Below are positions 3,539 through 40,899 of a DNA stretch of 64,000 bases, piece after piece. A program made the translations under genes and the position numbers. The notes beneath the pieces were generated by a model. That model made no database searches, was not told the DNA's origin, and saw only the letters and a list, made by a program, of their open reading frames with translations. Positions within the stretch are counted from its first letter, which is position 1; each line of letters opens with the position of its first letter. This DNA is from Candidatus Omnitrophota bacterium (lineage in GTDB: Bacteria; Omnitrophota; Gorgyraeia; B26-G9): contig JAHITE010000123.1 in assembly GCA_018817585.1 (NCBI GenBank), positions 1,280-65,279 on the forward strand, in the 5' to 3' direction.

Positions 3539-5962
3539 TTAACCATTTGATGTTGTTCTAGTCAAGAATCCATTAGGATCATAGTAGAAAATTCCTGACA
3601 AAACACCTTGAGCATTGTAGGAGAAATTCTGTCTTCCACTAACATCAAAGGTAACTGAAGAAGTGATTGCACCTTCATTGTAGTTAACAGATTTCAACAT
3701 AAATCCATTCTTATCATAAGAATACTTAGATTGTAATGCGCCCTGAATAAATGAACCGTCAGCTTGTTTGGTCATTAAATATGATTCTGTCTGTTGTCCA
3801 TACTTGTTAAAGTATGTTCTGGTTGTCTCAGAAGTCCAAGTACCAGAAGGAATCGGGTCACCCTGATCATTATATGCCTTCATCACGGCAAAGCTGGTTG
3901 TATAGTGTAAGAATCCTTGAGCAGAGTAGGTATACTGCTGAACAAGCGCGGAATTTCCTTCTGGCGTATGATTCCATACCTGATTAGGTCTGGAATAAAC
4001 ATCATAAGTAATATGACTGACCAAGCTGCCTTCTCGCCCATAACTATTGGTCTGGTCTATGCCGCCATAGATATTATAGATGTTTTCCTGGTTCTTAAAT
4101 CCGCCGCCTTCAGCAATAGAACCATCAGCATTCACAGAATAATTAGCTACAGCATTCGCATTATAGTCAGCTCCTTGCGGATCAGTACTTTGCGCGTACT
4201 GATAGCCATCTTTAGTACTAACCCCGGTAAACAGCTGATAAGTAGCAGTTGCTTTTGAGTAAACATCAAAGGTTGTATATGAAGTTTGCACACCATTATT
4301 ATAGTTTACTGTCTGAGCTAATTGACCTCTATCATTATAGTAGTATTGGGTTGTTGTTACTCCTTTGAAGTTCTGAGACTCGGTTGGTCTACCGGTATTA
4401 TCATATATCAGGGATCCAGTAACAGCTTTATCTTCACCATAGTTAGTGGTTTTAGCAATAAAACCGTTTGAAGTATAGTAATTTTTCGATGTCTGAACCC
4501 CAACCTGATTATAGGTTGTTTCCGGACGTCCGTATTTATTATATACGCTGGTTCCTGTGTATACAGAAACATCATCAGAGGTATCAGTTGCCGTACCATT
4601 TGTATTCATTGAATACATTACCGCGCCGGTAACAAACCCAGTATTCGATGATCCAGAGAATTCAGATTTCCCATCCCATTCTGTACTATAAACAAATACC
4701 TGAGACACTGATGCGACTCCATTGTAAACAGAATAAGATGATACTGGTCTGCTCTTGCTGTCATATTCAGTATATCCAACTACCTGATAATAACCATGCT
4801 CAGTAACTCCCGCGGCATTAGTTACATCAACTGCCCATTGGCCAGTAGCAGCAGCATCTTCCTGAAACGCGAGATTTGTGGATTTAATCATAAATCCTGC
4901 GTCATTATACTCAAAACTGCTTACTACATAACCTTCAGCATTATTGGTATGAGTTTGTTTTCCATAATCATTATAATAGGTTGTTCCAGTTACCGGACCT
5001 TTAGCTTCAGTGCCTGGATCACCATATGATGTACTGCTTGCCAGAAAACCATTATCATTATACTGAAAATCCTGAACAATCGCGTTTCTTTCATTATAAG
5101 CTGCTACTGGTCTGCCGTATTCATTAAAAACGGTTTTACCTGTATAGCTATTGTTAATCCCATAATTGTTTGTTTGGCTCATGAATCCAGCACGAGAATA
5201 TACAAATGCCGTTGTCTTTTCACCAAGTTCATTAAAGGATTTTTCCTGCTGACCATATTTATTAAATGTTGTGTATCCAGAAACCTCATTATTATCTCCA
5301 TAACTAACCGTCGCTGTTAAAAATCCAGTATTAGCTGCCTGACCAACTAGTCCAAGAGTACTTGTTTCACTGGAAGCATCTGTATTGTATATAAAATCCT
5401 GGACTTTTGTAGCTGTTCCTGATTCAGAAACAGTATAAGAACCAACTGGTCTACCCGCGCCATTATATTCTGTATATCCAGTTAAAACTTCATTATTACC
5501 ATAACTGTTTGCCTGAGTCATAAAGCCTTGCGTATCATACGCGTAATCAGCTACTTTTGCTCCGACTTCATTAGTCTGGTTAACAGCCTTACCATAAGCA
5601 TCATAAGTTGTTATTCCGGTTAAAGTCGGTGCCATTGCTCCATTCTGAAGACTTGGTTCACCATAAGTATTGCTTGATTCCATAGATCCGGTAAACGCGT
5701 TATAATTAAAATTCTGGACTAATGTTCTCCGATTATTATAACTTTCTTCCGGACGGCCAAGATCATTAAAAACAGTACTACCTGTGCTAGCATTATCTAG
5801 TCCGTAATTGTACGCTACATCCATGAAACCTTGACTTGAATAACGATACTTTGTTGTTGTTTCCCCAAATTCATTTTTAGAAATAAGCTGTCTTCCATAT
5901 TTGTCAAATTCTGTGCTTCCGGTAACAACTCCATCTTTTCCATAGTTACTTGTGCTAGTCAA
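3539..5962 (-). pseudogene. C-terminal 807-codon continuation of the giant YD/Rhs-like repeat protein; same frame as 6038..10315, separated only by one TAA
   Basis: The roughly 40-aa repeat (YxYNxxGFLxxTxxYGxxxxVTGxTxFDxYGRPxxxYN) runs straight across the stop. No ATG and no RBS: the ORF track begins it on a TTG. Frame phase matches (5962 and 10315 are both 1 mod 3). Confidence 0.6.
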
Positions 5963-6037: not shown

Positions 6038-9000
6038 TTACTCTATCGGACGAGAATTATCATTAAACAAGGTATATCCGGTTACAGCATAAAAACCGCG
6101 CTGACTATCGCCGTTTGTCGAATCAGAAAGATCATTCAGATTATTATGAACAGCATTAACTGCCACTGAATCAGCTGCATAGCCTATCTCAGCAGTTGAA
6201 TCGGTTGTAGTATCTGCGACAAATGCCAATGATGTTGTTTTGGTCATAAATCCCTGAGAGTCGTATTCATAAGCAGATACAGTAATCCCCATATCATTTT
6301 CGCCTCTTAGCGCTTTACCATAACCATCGTATATTGTCTTTCCAGTCTTAGCCTGATTTTCCCCATAACTGGTACTTGCCTCTAAGAATCCGTATTGATT
6401 ATACTCAAATGTCTGAGTTAATCCCTTTAAACCAGTACCGCTTGAGGCCATATTAAAAGCTTCAGTCGGCCTGCCCATTTTATTAAACACGGTTTTTCCA
6501 GTATACGCGCCCTGCAGCCCATAGTTATTTGTCTGTTTAAGGAAACCTTGATTTGAATACACATATTTGGAGACAACAGCGTTGTCTTCATTATAAGTGA
6601 CGTTTTGTCTGCCATAATCATCAAATATTGTTTTTCCATTATCCACACCATTACGACCAAAGTTATTAGTCTGAACCATGAACCCATCTTTGTATACATA
6701 TTCCTGAACTTTTGCCGACTGCTGTCCGTTAACGCCGTCATTATAAACAGAATATGTAGCAACTGGTTTGGACTTTTCATTAAATTCCGTGTACCCAGTC
6801 AGAATAGTATTTACTGTAGACACTCCATCAACAGTAGTAACCATAATGTTACCATTTTCGTCTGTTTGCGCGCCATAGGACTCAGACTTTGTCATAAAAC
6901 CACGTTCATTATAGGCATATTGCTGAATTGTTACACCTTCCGCATTATCTACAGAAGTAGCTTTGCCATATTTATCATATTCAGTTTTACCTGTATATGT
7001 TGGCATATATTTAGCAGTTGCTGAAGTTGTTGATTTAGCAAACGCAATTAAATCTGTTCTATCAACATCACCATCTGAATCATAATCAAAACTAGCAACA
7101 TAATTAGCATCACCGGTAACTGATTTATAAGCAGCGCTAAAAGCAGTTGAACCGCTAAAAGAATCCTCAAACAAAGCCTGATCAGTCGCGTCAACAGCTC
7201 CGTCATCATTAAAATCAAAATCAGTAGAATAAGTTCTATCTCCTCTGACTGATCCAAGGGCCTCACTAAATTTATCCAATTTAGCAAGATCTACTACTGT
7301 TGCCTCGCCCCAAGTCATACTTGATTCAAGAAAACCATCATCGCCATAAACAAATGTTTGAGTTACCCCTTTTAAGTATGGCTGCCAAGCTGGATTATCC
7401 AGATCAGCTGAAGTTAATCCTTCGGAAAGAGCTGAAACAAGATCATCAGGAAGAGCAACTGCTTTAGAACCATAATTATTAAACGCGGCAACTGGTCTTG
7501 AAAAATTATCAAAAACAGTAAACCCGGTAACTCTTTTATTCGCTCCATAAGAAACTGTACTCGAAAGGAATCCGCCTGCAGAATAGTTATATTTTTGAAC
7601 TACTTGATCTGTTTCCCCAAGCGCTTCATCTCCTTTATTATAAGATTCGTTTTGTCGTCCATAGCTATCAAAAGTAGTATATCCAGTAACCGCCTGTTGA
7701 TCTTTATTCTCGCCACTAGTAGCAATTACGCCATCTCCATTTGAATCATAAAAATCACCAAAGGTTGTTGTTTTCTGAACAAAATTTGAATAATTTGTTG
7801 ATGTAACATTCACATAAATTGCTCTGCCATTGGCATCCACTTCACCAGTAGCTTGTTTTTCTGTTTTTTCATAAGAATATGAGAATCCCTGGGTTTTTGC
7901 GGTCTGAATACCCAAACTTGCCCCATTATCATCAAATCCCTCATACATTGAGTAAGAAGCCATTGGTTTGCCATCTCCGCCAAAAACAGTATAGCCTGTT
8001 ACTGTAGGAAGATTAACTGTTGGCAGATCCAGATCCCCAACAGGACGATCCGCGGAATTAGAAAGCTGCGCAACAGACCAATCAGTTACGTTTTCTACTG
8101 CTGTTCCCGCTGCATTCCAAGCCTGCGCTCCGCCAAATTCAGAAACCTGAACTTTATAAGCAGAAATAGCCGCACTGGAGTTTCCGTCTTGTTCTAAAGA
8201 CTGACCAAGCATATGATACGCAGTACCAACACTGTTGATTAAATATTCATTACCGCCTTTTGCTCCGTCACTAAACCACATAATTATTGTTAACGCGACC
8301 TTTTTAGTTAATTCAGCATCTCCTGAATTCCAAGCATTCCACATTGCGGACACAAAAGCACTGTCACTGAGATTTCCACCAGTAGCAGCAATAGCTTCTC
8401 CTGTATATGCCGGATCCCACAATGCTAAAATTGCTTCCTGATCAGCCATGGTTGAGGCAATAGATTCATTGACCCCTTCTGCCGCACTCATGGTAAAGCT
8501 TTGAACAAGCATCCCGCATTCATCATATACATATTTTTGCACTAAGCTTCCAGTGTGATTATAAACATCTGTTGGCTTACCCTTATCATTATATAATGTG
8601 GAACCGGTTGTAACTCCGTTTTCTCCGAGATTCTTTGTTTCGGTTAAGAATCCGTCCGCATTATAAATAAACAATTGGCTTCCTGAGCCTTGAGCATTGC
8701 TAGCAGTAGTTGGTCGGCTTAAACGATCAAATGTTGTCGTACCAGTAGTTTTACCACCAAAACCATAACTAACTGTTTGCGCAAGAAAACCATTGCTGTT
8801 ATATTTATACTCCTGTTGTTTTTCCATCACAGGATTACTGTCCGCATCCACAACAATATTACCCAAATCATCACGCACCAAAGCATAAACAGCTTCTGGT
8901 CTGCCTTTTTTGTCATATTCAGTTTTAGAAGTTGTAATGTACTGAAAATTACCACTTGCGTCTAAAACTGCCTCGCCATAAGCTACATCATTTTCATCAG

Positions 9001-10315
9001 TATTTCTAATAATACCCAGCGAATATGTGCTCTCTAATGTCCCGTTTGCTTTATACGCGTATTCCTGAATTTTTACTTTATTCCCGCCATCACCTAACTG
9101 CCAAACCTCATCCGGACGGCCTTGCCCGTCAAAAAGCGTCATCGAAGTTCTTGCCTGAGAGCCCAAAGAATTGATCGCGCCCAAAGAAAATGTCTGCTGT
9201 AAAAAGCCATGCTCATTATATTGATATTCCTGAACTTTGACTCCAACATGATTATATGTTCCGGAAACCTGTCCATACTCATTATAATCGGTCCAGCCAG
9301 TAACAATACCTTCTTCTCCTAAATTAGTAATTGAAGTGATATTATTCGCGGCGTCATAATTATAAGCACCGATTGGCACCAAATGATCAACTACTGTTTC
9401 CCCGGTTAAAGGATCAATAACTTCATTACCATCAGCATCAACTTGATTAACAACATCAAAAATAGTGGTATAATATCCATTAACCACTTCCGTGATTTGA
9501 TTTGAAATCACATCAGTAACTGAAACCAAGATCTCATTAGAATCATACTGAAATGTTTTAGTAATTGTACCCTCAAGATTTGTTACATAGGAAGGACGAA
9601 TACCGTCTTGTTCAAAATGAGTTGTATTCCCGTTCTGATCAATAAATGTTTCCAATATTCCTTTTGAATTATAAGTATAGTCCCCAACCTGCACAGCAGT
9701 TCCGTCCATATTTGTATACATAATATAATCAGGACGCTGATTAGAGTCGTATATTGTTTTATTTCCCCATTGATCAGTAGAGCTTACCATTATTTCAACG
9801 CCATTTTTATCCAAACCATATTCATACGTAATTAAACCTTGTGCTGACGTGGATAATAACTGGCCATATTGGCTATATTGTCTTGTTTCAACAAGCGCGC
9901 CATTTTCATTATAAAGCTTAACAGTCGCGCCATCAAGTTCATACTTATAAGTTAAACTTTCACCGGTTTCGTCATTTTTAACTTTAATAGTTGCTCCGTT
10001 TAAAGTATAACTAACCTCAGTATAACCTTCCGCGGTTTTACTTACCTGAGCCGAAGCCCCTTCTCCCGAGTAAATATAAAGATCACCATTGGAAGTGGTA
10101 ATTACCTTTGGGGGAGGCGCTACTTGCTGATTCAGATCAGCTGATTCACTTTGGTCTGCAACCTGACCGCCAAATACCCCTTGAATTACTTCCTGGGACA
10201 TTAGCATGTCTTCCATTGCAGTTATATCAAAAGCAAACGCGAGATTCATGGTTGTCACATTAACAATAAAACAAACAAGCACTAAATAACTATAAAAACG
10301 AATATATTTGTTCAT
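6038..10315 (-). CDS. giant secreted YD/Rhs-like repeat protein, N-terminal 1425 codons (signal peptide, YD-like repeats, non-repeat insert, dockerin-like Ca-binding module)
   Basis: N-terminal signal peptide MNKYIRFYSYLVLVCFIVNVTTMNLAFA; dozens of degenerate YD-type repeats; AGGAGA RBS ahead of the ATG; ends at TAA 6038-6040 in mid-repeat. Confidence 0.75.
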   Translation of the reverse strand: MNKYIRFYSYLVLVCFIVNVTTMNLAFAFDITAMEDMLMSQEVIQGVFGGQVADQSESADLNQQVAPPPKVITTSNGDLYIYSGEGASAQVSKTAEGYTEVSYTLNGATIKVKNDETGESLTYKYELDGATVKLYNENGALVETRQYSQYGQLLSTSAQGLITYEYGLDKNGVEIMVSSTDQWGNKTIYDSNQRPDYIMYTNMDGTAVQVGDYTYNSKGILETFIDQNGNTTHFEQDGIRPSYVTNLEGTITKTFQYDSNEILVSVTDVISNQITEVVNGYYTTIFDVVNQVDADGNEVIDPLTGETVVDHLVPIGAYNYDAANNITSITNLGEEGIVTGWTDYNEYGQVSGTYNHVGVKVQEYQYNEHGFLQQTFSLGAINSLGSQARTSMTLFDGQGRPDEVWQLGDGGNKVKIQEYAYKANGTLESTYSLGIIRNTDENDVAYGEAVLDASGNFQYITTSKTEYDKKGRPEAVYALVRDDLGNIVVDADSNPVMEKQQEYKYNSNGFLAQTVSYGFGGKTTGTTTFDRLSRPTTASNAQGSGSQLFIYNADGFLTETKNLGENGVTTGSTLYNDKGKPTDVYNHTGSLVQKYVYDECGMLVQSFTMSAAEGVNESIASTMADQEAILALWDPAYTGEAIAATGGNLSDSAFVSAMWNAWNSGDAELTKKVALTIIMWFSDGAKGGNEYLINSVGTAYHMLGQSLEQDGNSSAAISAYKVQVSEFGGAQAWNAAGTAVENVTDWSVAQLSNSADRPVGDLDLPTVNLPTVTGYTVFGGDGKPMASYSMYEGFDDNGASLGIQTAKTQGFSYSYEKTEKQATGEVDANGRAIYVNVTSTNYSNFVQKTTTFGDFYDSNGDGVIATSGENKDQQAVTGYTTFDSYGRQNESYNKGDEALGETDQVVQKYNYSAGGFLSSTVSYGANKRVTGFTVFDNFSRPVAAFNNYGSKAVALPDDLVSALSEGLTSADLDNPAWQPYLKGVTQTFVYGDDGFLESSMTWGEATVVDLAKLDKFSEALGSVRGDRTYSTDFDFNDDGAVDATDQALFEDSFSGSTAFSAAYKSVTGDANYVASFDYDSDGDVDRTDLIAFAKSTTSATAKYMPTYTGKTEYDKYGKATSVDNAEGVTIQQYAYNERGFMTKSESYGAQTDENGNIMVTTVDGVSTVNTILTGYTEFNEKSKPVATYSVYNDGVNGQQSAKVQEYVYKDGFMVQTNNFGRNGVDNGKTIFDDYGRQNVTYNEDNAVVSKYVYSNQGFLKQTNNYGLQGAYTGKTVFNKMGRPTEAFNMASSGTGLKGLTQTFEYNQYGFLEASTSYGENQAKTGKTIYDGYGKALRGENDMGITVSAYEYDSQGFMTKTTSLAFVADTTTDSTAEIGYAADSVAVNAVHNNLNDLSDSTNGDSQRGFYAVTGYTLFNDNSRPIE
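7045..7225 (-). other. dockerin-like / EF-hand pair Ca-binding module inside the YD-repeat protein
   Basis: Two 12-residue loops, DFNDDGAVDATD and DYDSDGDVDRTD, each followed by a hydrophobic helix (QALF / LIAF): the classic dockerin duplicated-loop pattern. Confidence 0.5.
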
Positions 10316-24734: not shown

Positions 24735-24932
24735 TCAGTGTTTCATTAACTGCTTAATTTGTGCCTCGGTTTTTGTGAGCTTAACATTCAAAGCATACTT
24801 TGTAACATAAAGTTCATTGTTTTTATAAAAATAATAGGCTATATATAATGACCCGATAAAGTTGACCAACCCAGAATCTTGGTCTTGCTGAACCTGAAAT
24901 CTGCGCTGTATGAATAAATTATTATTATTCAC
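24735..24932 (-). CDS. small hypothetical protein (65 aa)
   Basis: A stand-alone ORF with its own terminator immediately downstream; no recognisable domain. Confidence 0.3.
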   Translation of the reverse strand: MNNNNLFIQRRFQVQQDQDSGLVNFIGSLYIAYYFYKNNELYVTKYALNVKLTKTEAQIKQLMKH

Positions 24933-25204: not shown

Positions 25205-26179
25205 TTAGAATTTACAGGAAATGCCGAATTGGTGCAGATAATCCTCATTGCCTACCGCAGGATCCTGCCAATAAACAAACGTATAGTCAAAGTAATAACA
25301 TACAGGATGCGTTACAAAAAATTCCGCATACTGCCAGCCCAATCCCAAAGAGTAATATTTACTGGAATCCATGCTTGAATTAGGATTATGCGCTCCCAGC
25401 CTCAGAGAGAAATCGTCATTAAAATAATGTTCCATGCCCAAGCGTACATTTTGACTGTAATCAGATCCTCGATCCTGCGTATTACCAGTTAAATCATAAA
25501 TATCACAAGTTAATACAGTAGACTCATTCATATAATAAGCCAAACCCGGACGCCAGACTCTGATCAATCGACTATTTACCCCATGAATCGTAAAAGTCGG
25601 CTCATTAATATTTTCCACCAATAAACCCAAAGCCATTTTTTCCGACATATACCAGAGAAATCCCGCGTTTAAACTTATTGCTGTATCGCTGGAACTAATC
25701 CCGGGAATTTCTGATTTAAAATTAAAATAATTTAAAGAAACTCCCCAAGCCATATTTTCACTGGAAAAGAATTGACGGCCATAAGCAATACCTGGCTGCA
25801 TCAAAATTGTTTTACTGCGAGTTATTTCGTTTTCATAAGTACTGTTTTGATAATAGACCCCAACTGATCCGCTTTTAGAATCGGTCTGCCCCAGCTGCTT
25901 AGTATATACAATATAATCATCACTAATAAAATCACCAGTAATATAATCATTTCTCGCATTGATTGTTGCCGAAGCGCTAAATTCCTGGTCTTTTTGCCAG
26001 GCAAGACCAGCCGGATTCCAAGTACTGGCATTAGCATCATCAGCCAATGCGACAAATGCTCCGCCCATGGAAACCGGTCTGGCTCCGCCTTGAGCTGCCC
26101 AAACATTTTGATTACAAATAACCATTAACCCCATTATTAATAAAATAATAAAAAATCTTTTGCTTAAATATTTGCGCAT
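25205..26179 (-). CDS. outer-membrane beta-barrel protein, FadL/PorV-like
   Basis: Signal peptide; N-terminal motif RPVSMGGAFVALADDANASTWNPAGLA as in FadL/PorV-type barrels; alternating amphipathic strands; C-terminal Phe (..ISCKF). Stop/start abuts the peptidase gene. Confidence 0.55.
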   Translation of the reverse strand: MRKYLSKRFFIILLIMGLMVICNQNVWAAQGGARPVSMGGAFVALADDANASTWNPAGLAWQKDQEFSASATINARNDYITGDFISDDYIVYTKQLGQTDSKSGSVGVYYQNSTYENEITRSKTILMQPGIAYGRQFFSSENMAWGVSLNYFNFKSEIPGISSSDTAISLNAGFLWYMSEKMALGLLVENINEPTFTIHGVNSRLIRVWRPGLAYYMNESTVLTCDIYDLTGNTQDRGSDYSQNVRLGMEHYFNDDFSLRLGAHNPNSSMDSSKYYSLGLGWQYAEFFVTHPVCYYFDYTFVYWQDPAVGNEDYLHQFGISCKF

Positions 26180-28713
26180 TATAAATCACCTTTATTAAGC
26201 AGATCAGCTAATTTAACCAAAGAACTAAGACCATAGCGTACTGCTTTTTTAGCCGCGTCATTAGCTCTGATCATATCTGCCAGTTTTGGCCCAATTATAT
26301 AATAAACAGCCACAAATTCCCTGCCTCGATAATCAGCCATTAATTGTTTATCTCTAAATTTCCGCAGTAATACCACTTCCGGAGCTTGTTGGTCTCCATA
26401 GCAGGCTGTTGCCACAAAACAACTACTACTGCTGCTCGATGAATCAGCACTGCCTGAGCCTCCTAATACAGTTGTGCTGGCCCGGTTATTAGCAGCCACC
26501 GCTCCTTCATAAGTAGTCCCATTATAGCCAAAAGCAACATAATGATAAGTTGTATCAGCCTTAACATCAGTATGATTATAAGTTTCGGTTGTTCCTGGCG
26601 TAGCAGCCTTAGAAACCAGCAATGTACCGTCAGTCTCACTGGTAGGATAGGTTCCGTCCGTGCGATAGCGAATCATTACCTGAGTTAAATCCGCCCGGAT
26701 TGAATTTTTCCAGGATAAAGTCACCCAGCTGCTGTTGGCAAAAGCAATATTATTTGCTGTAAAATTTGTTGGTGATAAAAAAGCCGCGCTTAAAGGAGTT
26801 TGCGGATCGCCTAATAAATTAGTCGCGAAATAAGCCCAGCGCTCAGCATCATATGAGGCAACCAAGCCAATTGTTTCCTGCTTTGCCAATTGTAATGCTT
26901 TGCCGATATTTACATTTCCATCACGCACCACTGAGTCCCAGAATTCGCGATGAATCCGCTGCGATGCGCCATTAGTCCCTCCGGGATTATACCAGCCATA
27001 CCTTGAGTTGCCGATAAACGAAAATGCCCCATTAGCTTCTGTAGTAAAATGCTCTAAAATACAATCTGAAGCACCATAAATCCCGTCACTCTGCCGATTA
27101 TCAAAAGCTCCGGAATAACAGCCCTGAGTATAACCAAAAAAATACTCAGTGTTTGTTAAGCCATCAACATCAGCATTCGACATTGTCTTAGCAACTACAG
27201 TATTAGTAGCATGCCCCAAATGATTAATGACGTGAACACCCGCGTTAATAATTGCCACTAAACTGCTCGTAATCCAAGTAGCATCCTGATCATATAGATT
27301 ATTAAAACTAAAATAACCAGATTCTGACATACCGCTGGTGGAATAACCATTAGCGCTGGATCCATTACGAATTTCTTCCAAATATGGTTTTGCGTAAGTA
27401 TCTGTAACCAATTCACCCGCCATGCAAGCCCGGGTAAGATAATCCGCGTTAGAATTTTCATAAGCAATTGTTTTTTTTACAAAATTAGCCAACTCAGCCG
27501 TGGAATCAACCGGAGCCCGGCCAATATAGACCTCAGCAGTTAAATCAATACTCCCGCCGCCAGGCCCATCACCGATCTCTCCATATATCCCATTATTATT
27601 AAAATCAAAATCCCCATCAAAACAAGCATAATACATATCACAGGGAATATTATTATCAGGATCTAAATGTGCCGGGTAATCATTATTTACCTTGCCATAA
27701 AATCCTCTATAGGGAATTATCGGCGCTGCTTCGGTTTCTCCAGTAGCAATGCCACCGCCGTCAGCATCACCGACTAAAAGCACATATTGAGTTAAATTAT
27801 CTGTACAATAAGCAATAATAAAATCGCGCAGATTTCCCGCGTTATCCGATTTAGCAGTATAATTCGCATAAACCCAAGTTGTGTCAAATATTTCAGTAGA
27901 TATTCCCTTAGATTCTTTATGAGTTTTAAGATCATTCAGATTATTTACACCAACATAGTTTTTAAATCCTAAGCTCGTAATAATTAAATAATCGACCGTA
28001 GCTAAAGGAGCTGCCAATGAGGTTATAGCATTTTGACTATACGTACTAATATCTTCCGGATTATCTACAAAATCATTTACAGCCTTTTGATCAGCAGCAA
28101 TACCGCGATAAAACTTATTATTCGTACTCAGCGTCGCCAGCTCATCGGATAAGACAATATTAAGATTAAGATTATCATAATAAGCTAATTTACCAGTTGC
28201 CGGAATATATTCCACGGGAAAAAGATTAATAATCAGGATTTTATAACCACGCATTTCCTGCGTGGAAACAACTTTGTAGACAGATTCAGGATAAGCAGTA
28301 TTACGGCTATAGATTTCAGGATTAGGCAAAGTGGGATTAATCGGTCCCGCATAATCTGTTCGCGCTGGGGCTTGTGCCGGCTCAACAAAATAAGTACCGT
28401 AAACATATTTTTTACTGGTCCAGCCTAGAGTTACATTGCTGACTTTTTTCCCTTGAGGAATCAAATATTTTATGGTTTTAATTGGCAGCAAAGGTTCACC
28501 TGGTGCGGCAAAATTTTCCAAACCTTTAATTTTAACCCGATGATAATTATTTATTTTAGTAACTTCTACTGAATCAAGCTGTGTGCTAATCAGATTATTT
28601 TTAATTTTTAAAGAAAAACTCTGTTCTTCGCCAGCAGAATAAGCATTAAAATTAAATAAAAAAACAAAAACGCAAACACAGAAAAATATCCAGGTTGTTT
28701 TACTGCTGTACAT
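26179..28713 (-). CDS. secreted C25 (gingipain-like, clan CD) cysteine peptidase with FN3-like domain, poly-Ser linker and a conserved Cys-containing C-terminal domain
   Basis: Signal peptide; His-Gly/Cys dyad context INHLGHATNT ... GYTQGCYSGAFDN; FN3-like WxxLxW...Y..Y segment; SGSADSSSSSSS linker; C-terminal CFVATACYG...LLRKFRD...YY..GP..A domain. Confidence 0.6.
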   Translation of the reverse strand: MYSSKTTWIFFCVCVFVFLFNFNAYSAGEEQSFSLKIKNNLISTQLDSVEVTKINNYHRVKIKGLENFAAPGEPLLPIKTIKYLIPQGKKVSNVTLGWTSKKYVYGTYFVEPAQAPARTDYAGPINPTLPNPEIYSRNTAYPESVYKVVSTQEMRGYKILIINLFPVEYIPATGKLAYYDNLNLNIVLSDELATLSTNNKFYRGIAADQKAVNDFVDNPEDISTYSQNAITSLAAPLATVDYLIITSLGFKNYVGVNNLNDLKTHKESKGISTEIFDTTWVYANYTAKSDNAGNLRDFIIAYCTDNLTQYVLLVGDADGGGIATGETEAAPIIPYRGFYGKVNNDYPAHLDPDNNIPCDMYYACFDGDFDFNNNGIYGEIGDGPGGGSIDLTAEVYIGRAPVDSTAELANFVKKTIAYENSNADYLTRACMAGELVTDTYAKPYLEEIRNGSSANGYSTSGMSESGYFSFNNLYDQDATWITSSLVAIINAGVHVINHLGHATNTVVAKTMSNADVDGLTNTEYFFGYTQGCYSGAFDNRQSDGIYGASDCILEHFTTEANGAFSFIGNSRYGWYNPGGTNGASQRIHREFWDSVVRDGNVNIGKALQLAKQETIGLVASYDAERWAYFATNLLGDPQTPLSAAFLSPTNFTANNIAFANSSWVTLSWKNSIRADLTQVMIRYRTDGTYPTSETDGTLLVSKAATPGTTETYNHTDVKADTTYHYVAFGYNGTTYEGAVAANNRASTTVLGGSGSADSSSSSSSCFVATACYGDQQAPEVVLLRKFRDKQLMADYRGREFVAVYYIIGPKLADMIRANDAAKKAVRYGLSSLVKLADLLNKGDL

Positions 28714-30220
28714 CTGCTTTATCCTCCCACTCCCGCCATTTATAAACAGCCTGATCCAAAGCTTTTTTCATTGCCTGATCCCGCTTTTCTTTAATATCCA
28801 TTTCCCCTGTATTCTGATTAACAATATGCGGCGTAATAAAAACAACTATTTCTTTTTTCACATTCGACGTGCCCTGGCTTTTAAAAAACATTCCCAAAAC
28901 AGGAATACTGCCGAGTATCGGCACTTTTGATTGCGTCTGCGATACAGTATCTTTGATTAATCCGCCCAAAACAATTGTTTTTCCGTCCCGAACAATAACT
29001 GTGGTATCTGCCTGGGTTGTGTCCACTGCCAAGGAATTATTAACCTCAGCCACCCTTCTGGCGGAACTGACTTCCGGATGGATTTTAAGCGTAATAAAAC
29101 CATCATCACTGATTTTCGGAGTAACTGTAAGCTTTACGCCCACATCAATAAATTTAGTTTCTTCGGTCTGGGTATTTGAATCTTTATCAATATAAGTTAC
29201 TAAATATGGTTCCGAAGCACCCACCAGAATATTCGCCTCATTATTATTCATAACCGTAATCCGCGGATTAGAAAGGATATTTGTATCTGTCATGCTTTCC
29301 AAAGCCTGAATCGTGACTTGATATTGATCAGCGCTCAGAGTTCCGATTCTTAAAGTTCCGCCATTACTCACGCTCACGGGTAAAACAGCAGACACATTGA
29401 TCGTATCTCCGTCCGTATCATTAAGATATTCCCAATTTACACCCAGCCCCTTACTTTTGTCAACTGAAATCTCTAAGATTTTGGCTTCAATCAATACCTG
29501 CTTTGATCTTTGATCCCAGTTTTTTATCAACATATCAATTTTAGCAATTGTCTCAGCAATCACCCGAATAACTAAACTATTTGTTCTTTCATCAATAAAG
29601 ATTTCCCCTTCCTGCTTGGGAATTAATTCCGTAAGCTTGGCCATCATTTCCTTAGCATCAGCATAATTTAAGTTATAAACCTTGGTAATCATCTTATGAT
29701 CAAGCGCCGCGATTACTTCTTCAGCCTCAGCAATATTAGCCACTGTATCCGTAATAATAACCTGATTAGCCATTGAATTTATTTCTACTCTGCCGCGGGG
29801 AGATTTTGTGGAATTAAGCACTTGTCTTAAATCCGCGACTTTGACATTGCTTAAGAAAAATACCCGGCTGACTAATTTTTCAGTCTGTTCCTGCTGCAAA
29901 ACATCCTGCTGCGTCAAAACCCGGATAATTCCCTTGTCTTCAACAAATAAAAAATTATTCGCGGTTAAAATAGCATCCAACGCCTGGATAACCGTAATAT
30001 CATTAAGCTTGGCAGTTACCCTCCCCTGCACATTCCGGCTGGCAACAATATTAACCTGCCCCTGTTCAGCCAGCAATCTTAAGACATCAAGAATACTCAT
30101 ATTCTTAACATCCAGATCGATTTTAACTGTATTCATATCCGCGGCATACAAATGTTCAAAAGAACACAGCAGGCTTAATAGCGTTAATAATGTGACTAAA
30201 CATAAAAATTTATTTTTCAT
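28700..30220 (-). CDS. secretin (GspD/PilQ family), compact form
   Basis: Signal peptide; N-domains plus secretin domain with C-terminal hallmark KKEIVVFITPHIV; about 500 aa; overlaps the peptidase gene by 14 nt. Confidence 0.8.
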   Translation of the reverse strand: MKNKFLCLVTLLTLLSLLCSFEHLYAADMNTVKIDLDVKNMSILDVLRLLAEQGQVNIVASRNVQGRVTAKLNDITVIQALDAILTANNFLFVEDKGIIRVLTQQDVLQQEQTEKLVSRVFFLSNVKVADLRQVLNSTKSPRGRVEINSMANQVIITDTVANIAEAEEVIAALDHKMITKVYNLNYADAKEMMAKLTELIPKQEGEIFIDERTNSLVIRVIAETIAKIDMLIKNWDQRSKQVLIEAKILEISVDKSKGLGVNWEYLNDTDGDTINVSAVLPVSVSNGGTLRIGTLSADQYQVTIQALESMTDTNILSNPRITVMNNNEANILVGASEPYLVTYIDKDSNTQTEETKFIDVGVKLTVTPKISDDGFITLKIHPEVSSARRVAEVNNSLAVDTTQADTTVIVRDGKTIVLGGLIKDTVSQTQSKVPILGSIPVLGMFFKSQGTSNVKKEIVVFITPHIVNQNTGEMDIKEKRDQAMKKALDQAVYKWREWEDKADVQQ

Positions 30221-30723
30221 AGTCTTAACTCGAATATTTCATCATCTTTTTTCAGAATAACTCTGTCTGATTTAACTTCCTTAACAATAAAACCCTCAAC
30301 ATTTTCATTGCCATAACAGTAAAAAGAGCGATCATTAGTCACATTGCTGATTATTGCCTGAGGGCCTTGCGCTCCAGAAACAATACCCAAAAGCTGTAAT
30401 TGCCCGAGGCTTAAATCCGCTTGTTCGGTTTTTACCGCTAAATCTTTTTTTTGTCCGGAATTAATTCCAGATTGCGTGATAAATAATTTTCTGCGCGTAA
30501 GAATCCGTTCATAATATTTTTCTGATTTTTTTACTAGCTCTAAACTCGCTATTGCCGGCATTGTTTTTTTACCCATTTTAGTCTCAATATCCATATTCTG
30601 GACACTAAAAAATAATATGCTGAAATAAATCAGGATTAATCCCGCGAAAAACATTAATCCTATATTAACACGATTTATATATTTATCTTTAAAAATAATT
30701 CTATTCAATAAATCATTTGCCAT
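30217..30723 (-). CDS. PilP/GspC-like inner-membrane secretin-interacting protein
   Basis: N-terminal TM helix; C-terminal beta-domain ...LQLLGIVSG..PQAIISNV..GFIVKEVKSDRVILKKDDEIFELRL resembling PilP/GspC HR domain; 4-nt overlap with the secretin gene. Confidence 0.45.
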   Translation of the reverse strand: MANDLLNRIIFKDKYINRVNIGLMFFAGLILIYFSILFFSVQNMDIETKMGKKTMPAIASLELVKKSEKYYERILTRRKLFITQSGINSGQKKDLAVKTEQADLSLGQLQLLGIVSGAQGPQAIISNVTNDRSFYCYGNENVEGFIVKEVKSDRVILKKDDEIFELRL

Positions 30724-30732
30724 AATAAAAAA

Positions 30733-31254
30733 TTAGTCCTTCGCGAGAATAGCACTTAACAGTAACTGCACTTTTAAAGGCTCGCCTTCTGCCTGAGCAT
30801 TAATTTGCGTGTGTTTAATTGAAAACATATATGGCGATTTGTCTAAAGCATAAAAAAAACTGCCCAAATTTTTTAATTCACCTTCTGTTTCCAATTTAAA
30901 ATCAAATTCATTATAGATACCATCTTCTTTTAGCGGAAATGGCTTTACATTGGTCACATTAAGTCCTGCCATTCCGGCTTTACTTTTAACATCCTGTAAA
31001 ATATCTGTTAGCGCTGGCTTGCCGGAATTGGCCTGAAATTTTTGAACAAAATCATTATATTCTTTTTCAATCACTGTTTTGCCATTAAGGATCTGATTTA
31101 TTTGACTTAAACCTGTTTCCGCGGCCTGAATCTTTGAATTAATTATAGTATACCGAGGATAAGCAAACTGGAAAAAGAAAAAATACAAGCCAATGCCTAA
31201 AATAAGACATAAGTATAATGACATTAGAAATAATTCTCTGCGCATTAAGCTCAT
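30733..31254 (-). CDS. PilO/GspM-like bitopic membrane protein
   Basis: N-terminal TM helix, coiled-coil segment, C-terminal ferredoxin-like region; size and position match PilO upstream of PilP-PilQ. Confidence 0.4.
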   Translation of the reverse strand: MSLMRRELFLMSLYLCLILGIGLYFFFFQFAYPRYTIINSKIQAAETGLSQINQILNGKTVIEKEYNDFVQKFQANSGKPALTDILQDVKSKAGMAGLNVTNVKPFPLKEDGIYNEFDFKLETEGELKNLGSFFYALDKSPYMFSIKHTQINAQAEGEPLKVQLLLSAILAKD

Positions 31255-37551: not shown

Positions 37552-40500
37552 TTAGCCCAACTGGACATCGATCCTGCTGATCTTACCGTCTCTGAGCATT
37601 TGCGCGTATTCACTATCCAGCACACTGCTTTCCACATTTACCCGATTGCCATTATCCAAAGCAATCCGCATTGATAAAGGCTTTACTCCGCCTTTACCAT
37701 AAGTATTTTTATTCTTAGGATTATGATAAATAACTAAAGTCGAATTTAAGAATTTAAAAGCATATGAGTTTTTCGGCAAATCAATAATCACATGCTTATC
37801 CTTGCCCAAGCAATACTCAAAAACTGCTTCTTCCTGAGTAAACATCCACGCTGGCAAAGCTGGCTCAAACCGCGCGATCAAGCCCTTGTTTTCATTTAAG
37901 CGAAAAGGATTTTGCCCAACATTCATCCACAACCACATGGTAATAAACTCAGCAGTAGAACCGCTTAGGCGGGCCACAAATCCATTACCGTGCAGGGTTT
38001 TATCAGGAAAAGCACTGCTAACCAGAAATGAGGAGTTTTCCAAAATACTTCGGCCGTATCTTTCCGCCGGCTGGAATGGTATCAGCACGTTTTTAAACTC
38101 AGTAAAAAACTCTTCATATAAACCATTGCGTAATAATTCCAAGATGAACTTATATTCCATATGCAGCCAGATTGACTCATTTTCCAACCATCCGGGAGTA
38201 AATACTCTGGCGCGACCAATATCTTTAGTCACTTTTTCCAAAGAAGCATTTACTTTAAACATTTTCAATGGTTTATCATACAAAGCGCTCTTTCGGGTAT
38301 TAGCATAAAGCGCTTTTACTTTTTTAGCATCCTGAACGCATCTTAAAGCATGAACCTGCGCTTCTAAAAACAAGGGCAAGGGTTTTTGTTTAAACTGTTT
38401 TGGCTGCACGCAGAAAAGACCATCTTTGCTTTTTTTAAATCCATCGCGGGTTTTAATTTTATTAAATTTAGTTACTTCATTTATAAAATAAGTATGATAT
38501 AAACCGGTTTTTTTATCTTTAGAATTAGCCAGGCTTATTTCCAGCTTTGCTGACATCTTCATTAAAATTGCTTTAATTTCTTTAATTTTCAAATCAACTA
38601 ATTTGCCATTAATTCCTCGGGAGATTTGTTTACGGTAAGTTTCTTTAAGCGCGTAAGACTTATCCCAATAAAGCATTTCCCGACTCTTGGTCTTGCTCTT
38701 AAGATAATTATTAACTAATCCCACAAGCCCTTGAATAAAATCATCCAATTCTTTCGGAACACTGACCAGTAAATCAGATTCGAGTTTCAGCTGCTCTATA
38801 CAGTTTAAAATAAAATCAATCAACCGCTTAAGCTCAAAGGTTTCGCATACCGATGAACCAAACAATCCGGGCAGACCATTTAAAGCATCATACCAACCCG
38901 GCTTATTCGCTTCCATTTCAATTCCACAGCCAAAAGCATCCAAAGATGCCATTTTATTAGTCAGCAGACAAAGCATTTTACTCAGTAATGTGGTTTTATA
39001 AATACTGCCGTTTCCCTGCTCAGTTCTAATTGCCCAATCATCACTGTTTTTCGCTCGGCAAAATTCAGATTCATCTTTAACGCCGTCTAAACCAACCGCG
39101 TGATACTGCCGAACCATATCATTATAAAGAATATATTTTTCATCACGGTTTTTAACTTTCACACAGTTATTAAAATAAACAAATTGTTTTTTATTCAACA
39201 GAATATCACTGAGTCTTTCCGGATAAATTGCCAGATAAGACTCCAAAGCATCCAGATTATAAGTCCAATGATCAACCCAGAATCCTTCACCGTGTTCCGC
39301 GTTTTGCTGACGTTTGCAGCTGGAAAGCAATTCAGTAAGAAATTTTTCTTTGCTTACCTTTAAATTAATCCCATTAATCTCTAAAAATATAAATAAATCG
39401 CCCAAAGCAAATTGTTTTTTAATAAACTTTTCTACTCTTAGCGCGTCGCTTTTCTTTTCCAGCACTACTTTGATATTTTTAAATGACTGATTGTCTTTAA
39501 GCTTAAATCTATCACCATAAACAACCAGAGGATTAAACCCATCCAGCTGAATAAGATTAAAAAAAACAATTATATTGGCATCCTGAACCATAGGATTAAA
39601 CCAAACATCATCCCGCCGATTCTGATTAACATCCCGGTAATTTCCATTTCCCTGCGACAAATATGTCGGCTCTATTAAGAAATTATTATAATCCCGCTCC
39701 AGATCCCCATGCTTACGGGAATAAACATGATAAACATGTGATTTCTCCTTACCCTCCAGAGTTATTGCCAATCCGCCTCTTAAAACATTGTCCAGATATG
39801 TTTGCTTACAATAAAGATCATATGTCGAATTTCCGCTCTTAGTAAAAATATTACTCTGAACTTTGGCGACTTCTTGCTTATATTCACAAGCTTTATTGAT
39901 TAAAAAATCATTATTATTTGCTTTAGCGATCAATGCCTGCAATTGCGCTTCTTCCCGGGCATAGCCGATCAAGCTGGTAATTGTCACTTCTTCCTGCGGC
40001 TTTAAAACCAGATCAATATAACTAAACGCCGAAGGAGTTTTGCTGGAAGTTATCTGCTCCTGTGGTACTTTAAAGTTTTTTTGACAGAAAAAACGCGGAT
40101 ACTGAAAGGTTTTATTTTGACCAAATACCACATCCGGATCAACAATAAACTCAGTTTTCTTATTAGAATTATTAGTATTGGCGTAACTATAATAGAAATT
40201 TCCACCTTTTATATACAGGACTTGCGGACTGTCCGAAGGATCAACCGCCAATTTATAAAACGGTGCTTTAAATTTTGTCACAAACTCTACCTGCATCCAG
40301 GCTTCAATTGTCCTGCCAATATCTTTTAAAAAACGGTCATTGGCGCCGCAAGGAATCACCTGCGCTAATCCATCGATAATTTCCAAAGATTTAGGCTTAT
40401 TTGAAATATTTTTTATGGTTAAATTACGCACCAGACAGCCCAGAGGCTCATTGGACATAGTAAAATATTTTGCTTCGATTTTTAAACCAATTGTCCGATT

Positions 40501-40899
40501 ATCTTCCTGAACACTGAAATCTTCCGGACTGATAAACATCTTGCGTTCTAAGAGAGTTTGCTGATTTTGCAGCTGATTACGAAAAGGTTCATAACAGGAA
40601 TTTTCTTTATCATTTATGCTTTTAATAAATGTTCTAAAACCGCGTCGGGAAGCAAACTGCCAGGCTTTATTCGCCGGAAAAAACTCAAGAATCGCGTTTT
40701 TCTTACTTTCCACGCCAAAACTGGCAATACCTTGACCGCGATTCACATAAAAAACCCACATCGGAATACCAAATAAGCCCGCAATCCCTGGAAAGAAACT
40801 TGCAAACGGTTTAGCCAAGTCATAATTGGTAATTACAAATTTTCCGTCATCCTGCAAATAGTATTCGACATTACGATCTTTCTTCACGCTTGCTCCCAT
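37552..40899 (-). CDS. large (alpha/alpha)6-type glycoside hydrolase/phosphorylase-like protein (GH94-related?), 1115 aa
   Basis: N-terminal beta-sandwich-like region FFPGIAGLFGIPMWVFYVNRGQGIASFG; central motif GNGNYRDVNQNRRDD resembling the catalytic Asp region of GH94/GH65-type phosphorylases; size similar to beta-glucan phosphorylases. Family assignment is tentative. Confidence 0.35.
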   Translation of the reverse strand: MGASVKKDRNVEYYLQDDGKFVITNYDLAKPFASFFPGIAGLFGIPMWVFYVNRGQGIASFGVESKKNAILEFFPANKAWQFASRRGFRTFIKSINDKENSCYEPFRNQLQNQQTLLERKMFISPEDFSVQEDNRTIGLKIEAKYFTMSNEPLGCLVRNLTIKNISNKPKSLEIIDGLAQVIPCGANDRFLKDIGRTIEAWMQVEFVTKFKAPFYKLAVDPSDSPQVLYIKGGNFYYSYANTNNSNKKTEFIVDPDVVFGQNKTFQYPRFFCQKNFKVPQEQITSSKTPSAFSYIDLVLKPQEEVTITSLIGYAREEAQLQALIAKANNNDFLINKACEYKQEVAKVQSNIFTKSGNSTYDLYCKQTYLDNVLRGGLAITLEGKEKSHVYHVYSRKHGDLERDYNNFLIEPTYLSQGNGNYRDVNQNRRDDVWFNPMVQDANIIVFFNLIQLDGFNPLVVYGDRFKLKDNQSFKNIKVVLEKKSDALRVEKFIKKQFALGDLFIFLEINGINLKVSKEKFLTELLSSCKRQQNAEHGEGFWVDHWTYNLDALESYLAIYPERLSDILLNKKQFVYFNNCVKVKNRDEKYILYNDMVRQYHAVGLDGVKDESEFCRAKNSDDWAIRTEQGNGSIYKTTLLSKMLCLLTNKMASLDAFGCGIEMEANKPGWYDALNGLPGLFGSSVCETFELKRLIDFILNCIEQLKLESDLLVSVPKELDDFIQGLVGLVNNYLKSKTKSREMLYWDKSYALKETYRKQISRGINGKLVDLKIKEIKAILMKMSAKLEISLANSKDKKTGLYHTYFINEVTKFNKIKTRDGFKKSKDGLFCVQPKQFKQKPLPLFLEAQVHALRCVQDAKKVKALYANTRKSALYDKPLKMFKVNASLEKVTKDIGRARVFTPGWLENESIWLHMEYKFILELLRNGLYEEFFTEFKNVLIPFQPAERYGRSILENSSFLVSSAFPDKTLHGNGFVARLSGSTAEFITMWLWMNVGQNPFRLNENKGLIARFEPALPAWMFTQEEAVFEYCLGKDKHVIIDLPKNSYAFKFLNSTLVIYHNPKNKNTYGKGGVKPLSMRIALDNGNRVNVESSVLDSEYAQMLRDGKISRIDVQLG

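Follow-up and report, generated by a model that had tools for sequence, protein, structure and literature searches.

A predicted C25 peptidase of an Omnitrophota bacterium ends in a domain assigned to CFI-box-CTERM, a portable C-terminal cassette of bacteria and archaea

What is the Cys-containing segment that ends a predicted C25 peptidase of Candidatus Omnitrophota, and what might it do for the protein that carries it? The gene lies at 26179..28713 on the minus strand of a 64,000-nucleotide stretch (hereafter the window), which covers positions 1,280 to 65,279 of contig JAHITE010000123.1 (assembly GCA_018817585.1). Read from the open reading frame (ORF) list and its translation, the gene encodes 844 residues, with the stop codon at 26179-26181. 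NCBI already lists the same protein (100% identity) from a Candidatus Omnitrophica metagenome-assembled genome. The original prediction described a Cys-containing module behind a poly-Ser linker on this peptidase, and the translation matches the residues that it quoted. It put no family name to the module and proposed it as a candidate recognition or anchoring tag for the secretion genes encoded alongside.

A profile search provides the missing name. The whole peptidase scores 79.4 bits against the NCBIfam profile NF041770 (CFI-box-CTERM) and the isolated tail 84.6 bits, where the curated cut-off is 40 bits. The match has an E-value of 1e-22 to 3e-24 and covers model positions 1-69 of 69. By this profile evidence, residues 765-844 are assigned as a genuine CFI-box-CTERM domain and an ordinary member of the family. 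The protein ends as GGSGSADSSSSSSS-CFVATACYGDQQAPEVVLLRKFRDKQLMADYRGREFVAVYYIIGPKLADMIRANDAAKKAVRYGLSSLVKLADLLNKGDL followed by the stop. The Gly/Ser low-complexity linker GGSGSADSSSSSSS occupies residues 751-764 of the translation (26422..26463, minus strand) and is followed directly by Cys765, which begins at base 26421. The domain proper spans residues 765-833 (26215..26421, minus strand) and contains the elements CFVATACYG, LRKFRD, Gly-797, YYxxGP and Arg-826 on four predicted helices. Its C-terminal placement and its Cys-Phe-(Ile/Val) start, here CFV at Cys765, are those of NF041770, and all of the signature residues (C1, F2, A4, T5, R23, D24, L27, G33, Y40, Y41, P45 and R62) are present. 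With the family it shares the C-terminal place, the CF(I/V)ATAxYG start, the FRD, the YY..(S/G)P and the Arg, at about twice the cut-off score. It belongs, however, to the minority two-Cys variant, with Cys at position 7 and Gly rather than Ser at position 44, and it lacks a transmembrane helix. Residues 834-844 (26182..26214, minus strand), delimited by orthologue alignment and hydrophobicity, complete helix 4 and form a short tail (..KLADLLNKGDL), also with no transmembrane helix. Counted from Cys765 the segment has 80 residues, contains no hydrophobic 17-mer and ends in LLNKGDL; an L-x-(K/G)-G-(D/N) terminus is common to the Omnitrophota orthologues.

The idea of a conserved, soluble C-terminal module holds up well. 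Besides the full-length profile match and the absence of a hydrophobic segment, the tail is kept in 14/14 Omnitrophota orthologues (50-73% identity) with the pattern CFxATxCYG...LRxFRD...YYxxGP. The tail was also said to be neither a C-terminal domain (CTD) of the type IX secretion system (T9SS) nor a PEP-CTERM or LPXTG signal, and our searches agree. The T9SS CTD (Por_Secre_tail/TIGR04183) gave no Pfam or NCBIfam match to the tail at E<=1, and the model described below has four helices and no beta-sandwich. The tripartite signals (PEP-CTERM, PGF-CTERM, GlyGly-CTERM and LPXTG) gave no NCBIfam match, and the C-terminus of the protein has no transmembrane helix. No Pfam family matches the tail at E<=1, and the PDB searched with a CFI-box sequence profile returned noise only (best E 0.4). 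NCBI already names some relatives 'CFI-box-CTERM domain-containing protein'. The family is thus named in the database, this copy is no discovery and standard NCBI annotation would label it. Neither is it a well-characterised family with an unrelated function, and the domain is far from unique to this protein, although the window itself holds one copy only.

When 1.84 billion representatives were searched exhaustively with phmmer, the CFI-box was present in 17,114 clusters at 50% identity (E<=1e-3), and a pattern scan of one genome per species gave at least 585 confirmed loci. In the best 150 matches the domain is terminal in almost all, starting 73-82 residues before the end. A second group of copies starts around 96-115 residues before the end, and in most of these the domain runs on into a hydrophobic helix with a basic tail. 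The matches listed include Parcubacteria, Saccharibacteria, Bacteroidota, Gemmatimonadota, Nitrospirota, Desulfobacterota, Proteobacteria (among them the cultured Paracoccus lichenicola and a Bdellovibrio), Chloroflexota, Bacillota, Planctomycetota, NC10, Omnitrophota and Methanophagales archaea; a separate search located copies in Woesearchaeota. A transmembrane helix with a basic tail follows the CFI-box directly in 39/83 genome-derived hosts, and a Gly/Ser-rich linker precedes it in 40/83 (48%). Where the N-terminus is complete it is signal-peptide-like in 51 of 70 hosts. We counted 104 Pfam families among 70 hosts, including PKD, fn3, GDSL lipase, beta-propellers, TPR, eCIS core and the L7/L12 C-terminal domain. 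A minority of hosts are small and have no signal peptide; some of them join a zinc ribbon to the CFI-box in 112-118 residues and occur in Woesearchaeota as well. Other hosts of this kind combine L7/L12-like repeats with the CFI-box or, on viral contigs, HNH-like or TPR-like segments with it. NF041770 passes its cut-off in 10/10 of the architectures checked, at 71-106 bits. The CFI-box is a portable C-terminal cassette, found on many unrelated passengers in bacteria and archaea.

Several CFI-box paralogues per genome, and tandem genes, occur. Several database proteins (P0122, P0123, P0148 and P0162; loci L047 and L052) carry two or three CFI-boxes and read as run-together tandem genes with no stop between them; their layout suggests gene-calling or genetic-code problems in those assemblies. 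We considered polyproteins with internal cleavage as an explanation of multi-CFI-box proteins and rejected it: after each internal copy come a transmembrane helix, a basic tail and a new signal peptide, as expected of fused tandem genes. A phage origin of the domain was rejected too, with one match in 50,697 phage records and nine IMG/VR loci, none of them an obvious tail fibre. Two single hosts are of a different character. In a Gemmatimonadaceae locus (L008:4195-6273) the CFI-box ends a protein that starts with a HELAHTVQQ-type motif (eCIS-core/DUF4157-like, read by eye), and in Paracoccus lichenicola (L017:3709-6249) it ends an RTX-repeat protein that has no signal peptide. From these two hosts it follows that the CFI-box is also used on toxin-like or type-I-secretion-type proteins.

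In 268 profile-aligned CFI-box instances the twelve signature residues are 96-100% conserved and Cys1 is invariant (268/268); the instances are the top-scoring matches, which gives them a bias to the consensus. At position 7, 67% of them carry Ala, 25% Cys and 7% Val. The original prediction had raised the conservation of both Cys residues: the first is indeed absolute, the second is confined to this quarter of the copies. The residue at position 7 goes with other properties of the protein. Copies with Ala-7 have a signal-peptide-like N-terminus in 74 of 106, and a transmembrane helix after the domain in 101 and none in 108. Among Cys-7 copies 48/57 have neither a signal peptide nor any transmembrane helix, and such a helix follows the domain in one and is missing in 66 (1/67). 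Judged by these sequence features, position 7 divides the family, and the Cys type is mostly of predicted cytoplasmic location. The window copy is unusual in combining the two-Cys form with a clear predicted signal peptide; unlike most two-Cys copies, it sits on what appears to be a secreted protein.

An AlphaFold2 model of the tail (16-sequence alignment) has a predicted local distance difference test score (pLDDT) of 93.1 and places helices at residues 2-8, 14-27, 31-52 and 55-76. As modelled, the CFI-box is a small, strongly basic four-helix module in which the invariant CF(I/V)ATA(A/C)YG segment makes up the short first helix. We infer that this helix packs on three amphipathic helices, which bear the likewise invariant LR-x-FRD, Gly, YY-x-x-(S/G)P and Arg. 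A Foldseek comparison of the model with solved structures gave nothing significant (best E 7.3). In the viral structure library BFVD the top hit is a 492-residue phage protein, annotated with an 'intramolecular chaperone auto-processing domain' (probability 0.85, TM-score 0.63, root-mean-square deviation 2.7 Å, 25% identity over 69 columns); with E=1.3 the match is not significant and is treated as a lead only. Two readings of the linker/Cys junction were discarded. A lipobox at G/S-Cys does not suit a Cys around 760 residues from the signal peptide, and Hedgehog- or intein-like autoprocessing between GG and CF does not suit a helical domain of around 70 residues that lacks the conserved His of Hint.

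We tentatively favour, with a probability of around 40%, the view that the CFI-box is a membrane-proximal retention or anchoring module, which holds its passenger at the membrane surface. In about half of the family the domain would do so next to the transmembrane helix and basic tail that adjoin it. In copies that have no such helix, the one in the window included, a more basic bundle and an amphipathic last helix would bind the anionic lipid surface or a partner located there. This view rests on four considerations. Half of the family is tethered to a transmembrane helix. The copies that are not are more basic (charge +4.26 vs +2.90, Mann-Whitney p=1.8e-4, the sequences being related and non-independent) and end in an amphipathic helix, the hydrophobic moment of helix 4 being 0.42 vs 0.27 for shuffled sequence; the window copy has a charge of +5 and a helix-4 moment of 0.53. 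Homologous C25 peptidases bear anchoring-type tails at the same place, namely dockerin-like, T9SS-CTD-like, SLH, PGF-like transmembrane or MYXO-like tails, and by analogy the CFI-box would work like the dockerin, SLH, T9SS-CTD-like or transmembrane tails among them. Finally, the lipid surface is, among the ligands considered, the one available to exported and cytoplasmic copies alike; the copies occur in many lineages and in proteins with no signal peptide, and a ligand on both membrane faces would therefore be expected. In the organism studied here the gene context suggests that the co-transcribed type-II-like secretin probably serves as the export route of the peptidase, which would then be held at the cell surface.

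Several points weigh against an anchoring role. Cys1, Thr5, Arg23-Asp24, Tyr40-Tyr41 and Pro45 are near-absolutely invariant, which exceeds the needs of unspecific membrane binding and hints at a specific chemistry or partner. The AlphaFold bundle is compact and soluble-looking, and none of its helices is hydrophobic enough for membrane insertion. The charge difference comes from the related sequences noted above, and the window copy belongs to the two-Cys subclass that is otherwise mostly cytoplasmic. The positional equivalence with anchoring tails is an analogy only. A full-text literature search by name, motif and accession gave no paper on the CFI-box.

The genes around the peptidase could point to a different use of the domain, as a recognition or docking tag by which a GspC/secretin system or a PorV-like barrel would target or tether the peptidase, much as PorV handles T9SS CTDs. 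Downstream, at 25205..26179 (minus strand), lies a gene for a predicted 324-residue outer-membrane barrel, whose ATG overlaps the stop of the peptidase gene (TAATG). It matches the NCBIfam model PorV_fam (NF033709) over positions 11-305 of 326 with 62.4 bits (E 5e-17, cut-off 90), which indicates a distant relative, below the cut-off. Upstream, a secretin gene of the GspD/PilQ type (506 residues, 28700..30220, minus strand) overlaps the start of the peptidase gene by 14 nucleotides at its end. It matches Pfam Secretin with 165 bits, together with Secretin_N and STN, and its NCBIfam GspD and PilQ matches are below cut-off. Further upstream follow a GspC-like gene (30217..30723, minus strand; Pfam T2SSC, 32.9 bits) and a PilO/GspM-like gene (30733..31254, minus strand; Pfam PilO, 29.4 bits). 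Orthologous loci at 50-54% identity retain the order secretin, C25-CFI gene, barrel, but synteny extends equally to the housekeeping genes on either side. In four of these loci (L002-L005) the gene after the peptidase encodes 329 residues and is, by position, the putative barrel. In another (L087:9535-10152) secretin and C25 gene are kept and the next gene encodes 205 residues, not around 329; a truncation or frameshift in the assembly may have shortened this barrel.

Secretion genes also occur near more distant copies. The gene for P0016, a distant C25-CFI protein of 942 residues, lies between gspK and gspL of a cluster with gspE, F, G, I, J, K and L. In that locus (L086:1-12507, GCA_030615855.1) a separate gene for a 214-residue Propeptide_C25 protein precedes P0016, and a nucleotidyltransferase/HEPN pair is inserted after gspE. 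A GspC-PDZ gene is located directly downstream of giant CFI-box proteins (around 2,000 residues or more) in an omnitrophote, a Brocadiaceae member and a proteobacterium (L072:343-7021, L032:1-7334 and L076:2-1610), and the giants are mutually homologous. The GspC gene is missing from the Omnitrophota relative L077. In two further loci (L056 and L050) a secretin with PilO/PilP, or with pilins, is encoded upstream of CFI-box genes.

Counted over 80 other CFI-box loci, GspC, secretin or pilin genes are nearby in five, and three of these five carry the homologous giants and may reflect one event. A barrel homologue adjoins the CFI-box gene in 0/80. We clustered the 714 flanking ORFs of the 80 loci in search of a conserved partner gene and found no family in more than six loci; the recurring families are generic (ABC ATPase, histidine kinase, sigma-54 activator, each in at most 6/80). 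Co-occurrence with secretion genes, offered as a check by the original prediction, is therefore seen for the GspC, secretin or pilin genes of a few loci and fails for the barrel. Parcubacteria, Saccharibacteria, Chloroflexota and archaea are taken here to have neither an outer membrane nor secretins. Because the domain is found in these lineages and in proteins of cytoplasmic type, the sequence evidence indicates that the CFI-box does not serve as a recognition tag for the secretin/PorV-like pair in particular, and as a general property the proposed role does not stand. The association might also come from the C25 passenger and not from the tail. We consider a docking role in the local module unlikely. 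A local link of the C25-CFI family with type II secretion is possible, given its repeated placement in such clusters.

Alternatively, the CFI-box could be an assembly module, that is an oligomerisation domain or intramolecular chaperone, possibly self-cleaving between Gly/Ser and Cys1. Its invariant first residue is a nucleophile placed right after a flexible Gly-rich linker, the passengers are mostly beta-rich repeats (PKD, fn3, propellers, beta-helices) and such a module would work in cytoplasmic and exported contexts. The phage protein found in BFVD fits this picture, but small helical bundles match easily and the E-value is not significant. The chaperone domain of phage tailspikes (Peptidase S74) is likewise C-terminal, partly helical and located after a beta-rich passenger, with a weak fold resemblance. 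In contrast to it, the CFI-box lacks a Ser-Lys dyad and hardly occurs in phages. More generally, the domain contains no conserved His, Ser or Lys that could serve as catalytic partner of Cys1, and its apparent internal copies do not come from polyproteins. We doubt this reading to the same degree as a docking role.

A broader proposal would combine several of these elements. The CFI-box would be a near-universal envelope-localisation device with a chemistry at Cys1 (self-cleavage, lipid attachment or covalent capture at the junction of Gly/Ser and Cys). In two-membrane bacteria it would mark the cargo of type-II or type-IV-filament-like systems for surface retention, and the C25-CFI peptidase with the PorV-like barrel would correspond, in Omnitrophota, to the PorU-PorV attachment complex. 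We regard this as quite unlikely. The arrangement does resemble the PorU/PorV pair of the T9SS of Bacteroidota, in that a C25 peptidase gene adjoins a PorV/PorQ-like barrel gene and a secreted protease carries a C-terminal module of around 80 residues; porU and porV are neighbours in Porphyromonas gingivalis. Unlike in the T9SS, the tail in the window is all-helical and the adjacent machinery is a secretin. The peptidase scores 48.7 bits against the T9SS sortase PorU (NF033707, cut-off 420), reflecting shared C25 homology only, and no other T9SS genes were found in the part of the window's ORFs that was scanned.

The domain might also be the substrate signal of a dedicated sorting enzyme of exosortase, archaeosortase or rhombosortase type, with Cys1 as the site of cleavage and of lipid or glycan attachment. 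Around half of the family has the layout of motif, transmembrane helix and basic tail, the motif is extremely invariant, and several paralogues per genome and tandem genes are found. A precedent for the secretion link seen here would be the GlyGly-CTERM proteins, which rhombosortase processes before they leave the cell by type II secretion. In general terms GlyGly-CTERM/rhombosortase (e.g. Vibrio VesB), PEP-CTERM, PGF-CTERM and LPXTG are comparable, being sorting elements at the C-terminus of secreted hydrolases that are tied to type II secretion and surface retention. These signals are, however, short motifs that abut a transmembrane helix, whereas the CFI-box is a folded domain of 70 residues whose conserved motif lies around 70 residues away from that helix. 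Half of the family, the window protein included, has no such helix at all, most of the two-Cys subclass is cytoplasmic, the search near the window copy gave no sorting enzyme and no candidate enzyme recurs around the 80 loci. A sorting signal is thus very unlikely. Highly improbable is the binding of a metal, cofactor or redox partner through Cys1 (with Cys7 in the two-Cys subclass), Arg-Asp and Tyr-Tyr: a 70-residue domain does hold invariant polar Cys, Thr, Arg-Asp and Tyr-Tyr residues, and the two-Cys form is concentrated in small cytoplasmic proteins, often adjoining zinc ribbons, but a second Cys is missing from most copies, the domain shows neither a His nor a CxxC-type geometry, and PDB profile and Foldseek searches related it to no known metal- or cofactor-binding domain by homology or by fold.

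Among the known systems, dockerin and SLH domains are comparable in the retention role that we favour. They too are small portable modules behind linkers, by which a variety of enzymes are localised, and use the same C-terminal slot in homologous C25 peptidases. They have no sequence or fold relation to the CFI-box, which has no known receptor such as cohesin or a pyruvylated polymer and, unlike them, is also found on cytoplasmic proteins. A further kind of tail was seen in Methanothrix-type archaeal C25 proteins (P0018-P0027 and P0072): it is acidic and repetitive (..FE.F.DM.F.F.DMGSG..), matches no recognised C-terminal module and may be another uncharacterised tail.

The remainder of the protein makes up the predicted secreted passenger. 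Residues 1-27 (28633..28713, minus strand) show the n-h-c organisation of a Sec-type signal peptide, MYSSKTTWIFFCVCVFVFLFNFNAYS followed by AGE; it is predicted from the translation by inspection. Residues 29-201 (28111..28629, minus strand) match Propeptide_C25 (Pfam PF08126, 38.6 bits, cut-off 22), and residues 242-640 (26794..27990, minus strand) match the Peptidase_C25 catalytic domain (Pfam PF01364, 192.8 bits, cut-off 23, model positions 1-373 of 374). Within the catalytic domain, 118 of 120 homologues retain His501 (HLGHA) and 117 retain Cys532 (QGCYSG). By motif alone, these two would be the catalytic pair. With PF01364 above its gathering score and the His/Cys pair kept, the passenger is assigned as a C25 (gingipain-family) peptidase; a phmmer search of PDB sequences with the whole protein gave no match to a solved gingipain. 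Residues around 656-731 (26521..26748, minus strand) form a candidate FN3-like beta domain with a weak match to Pfam PF16656 (E 0.1). Homologues have fn3 or PF16656 at this position, and P0128 has the same region together with a CFI-box.

The CFI-box is among the more abundant portable C-terminal modules of uncultured bacteria and archaea, and it combines an invariant Cys with a confidently predicted fold that has no significant solved match. If it is a surface-retention or processing device, it would account for the way in which numerous large proteins, adhesin-like or hydrolytic, are retained on the cell; the groups concerned would be Omnitrophota, Nitrospirota, Desulfobacterota, bacteria of the Candidate Phyla Radiation (CPR) and some archaea. 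It would then also offer a compact anchoring tag for engineering. That C25-CFI genes lie repeatedly within clusters for type II secretion offers a concrete point from which to begin testing.

We note some further ORFs of the window. Those at 6038..10315 (minus strand, 1,425 residues) and 37552..40899 (minus strand, 1,115 residues) have no Pfam match at E<=1e-3, and a neighbouring ORF of 807 residues at 3539..5962 has a weak RHS-repeat match only. Between the genes for the barrel and an M16 peptidase lies an ORF of 65 residues (24735..24932, minus strand) with no annotation. A gene of 65 residues is called at the same place in five orthologous loci (L002, L003, L004, L005 and L087).

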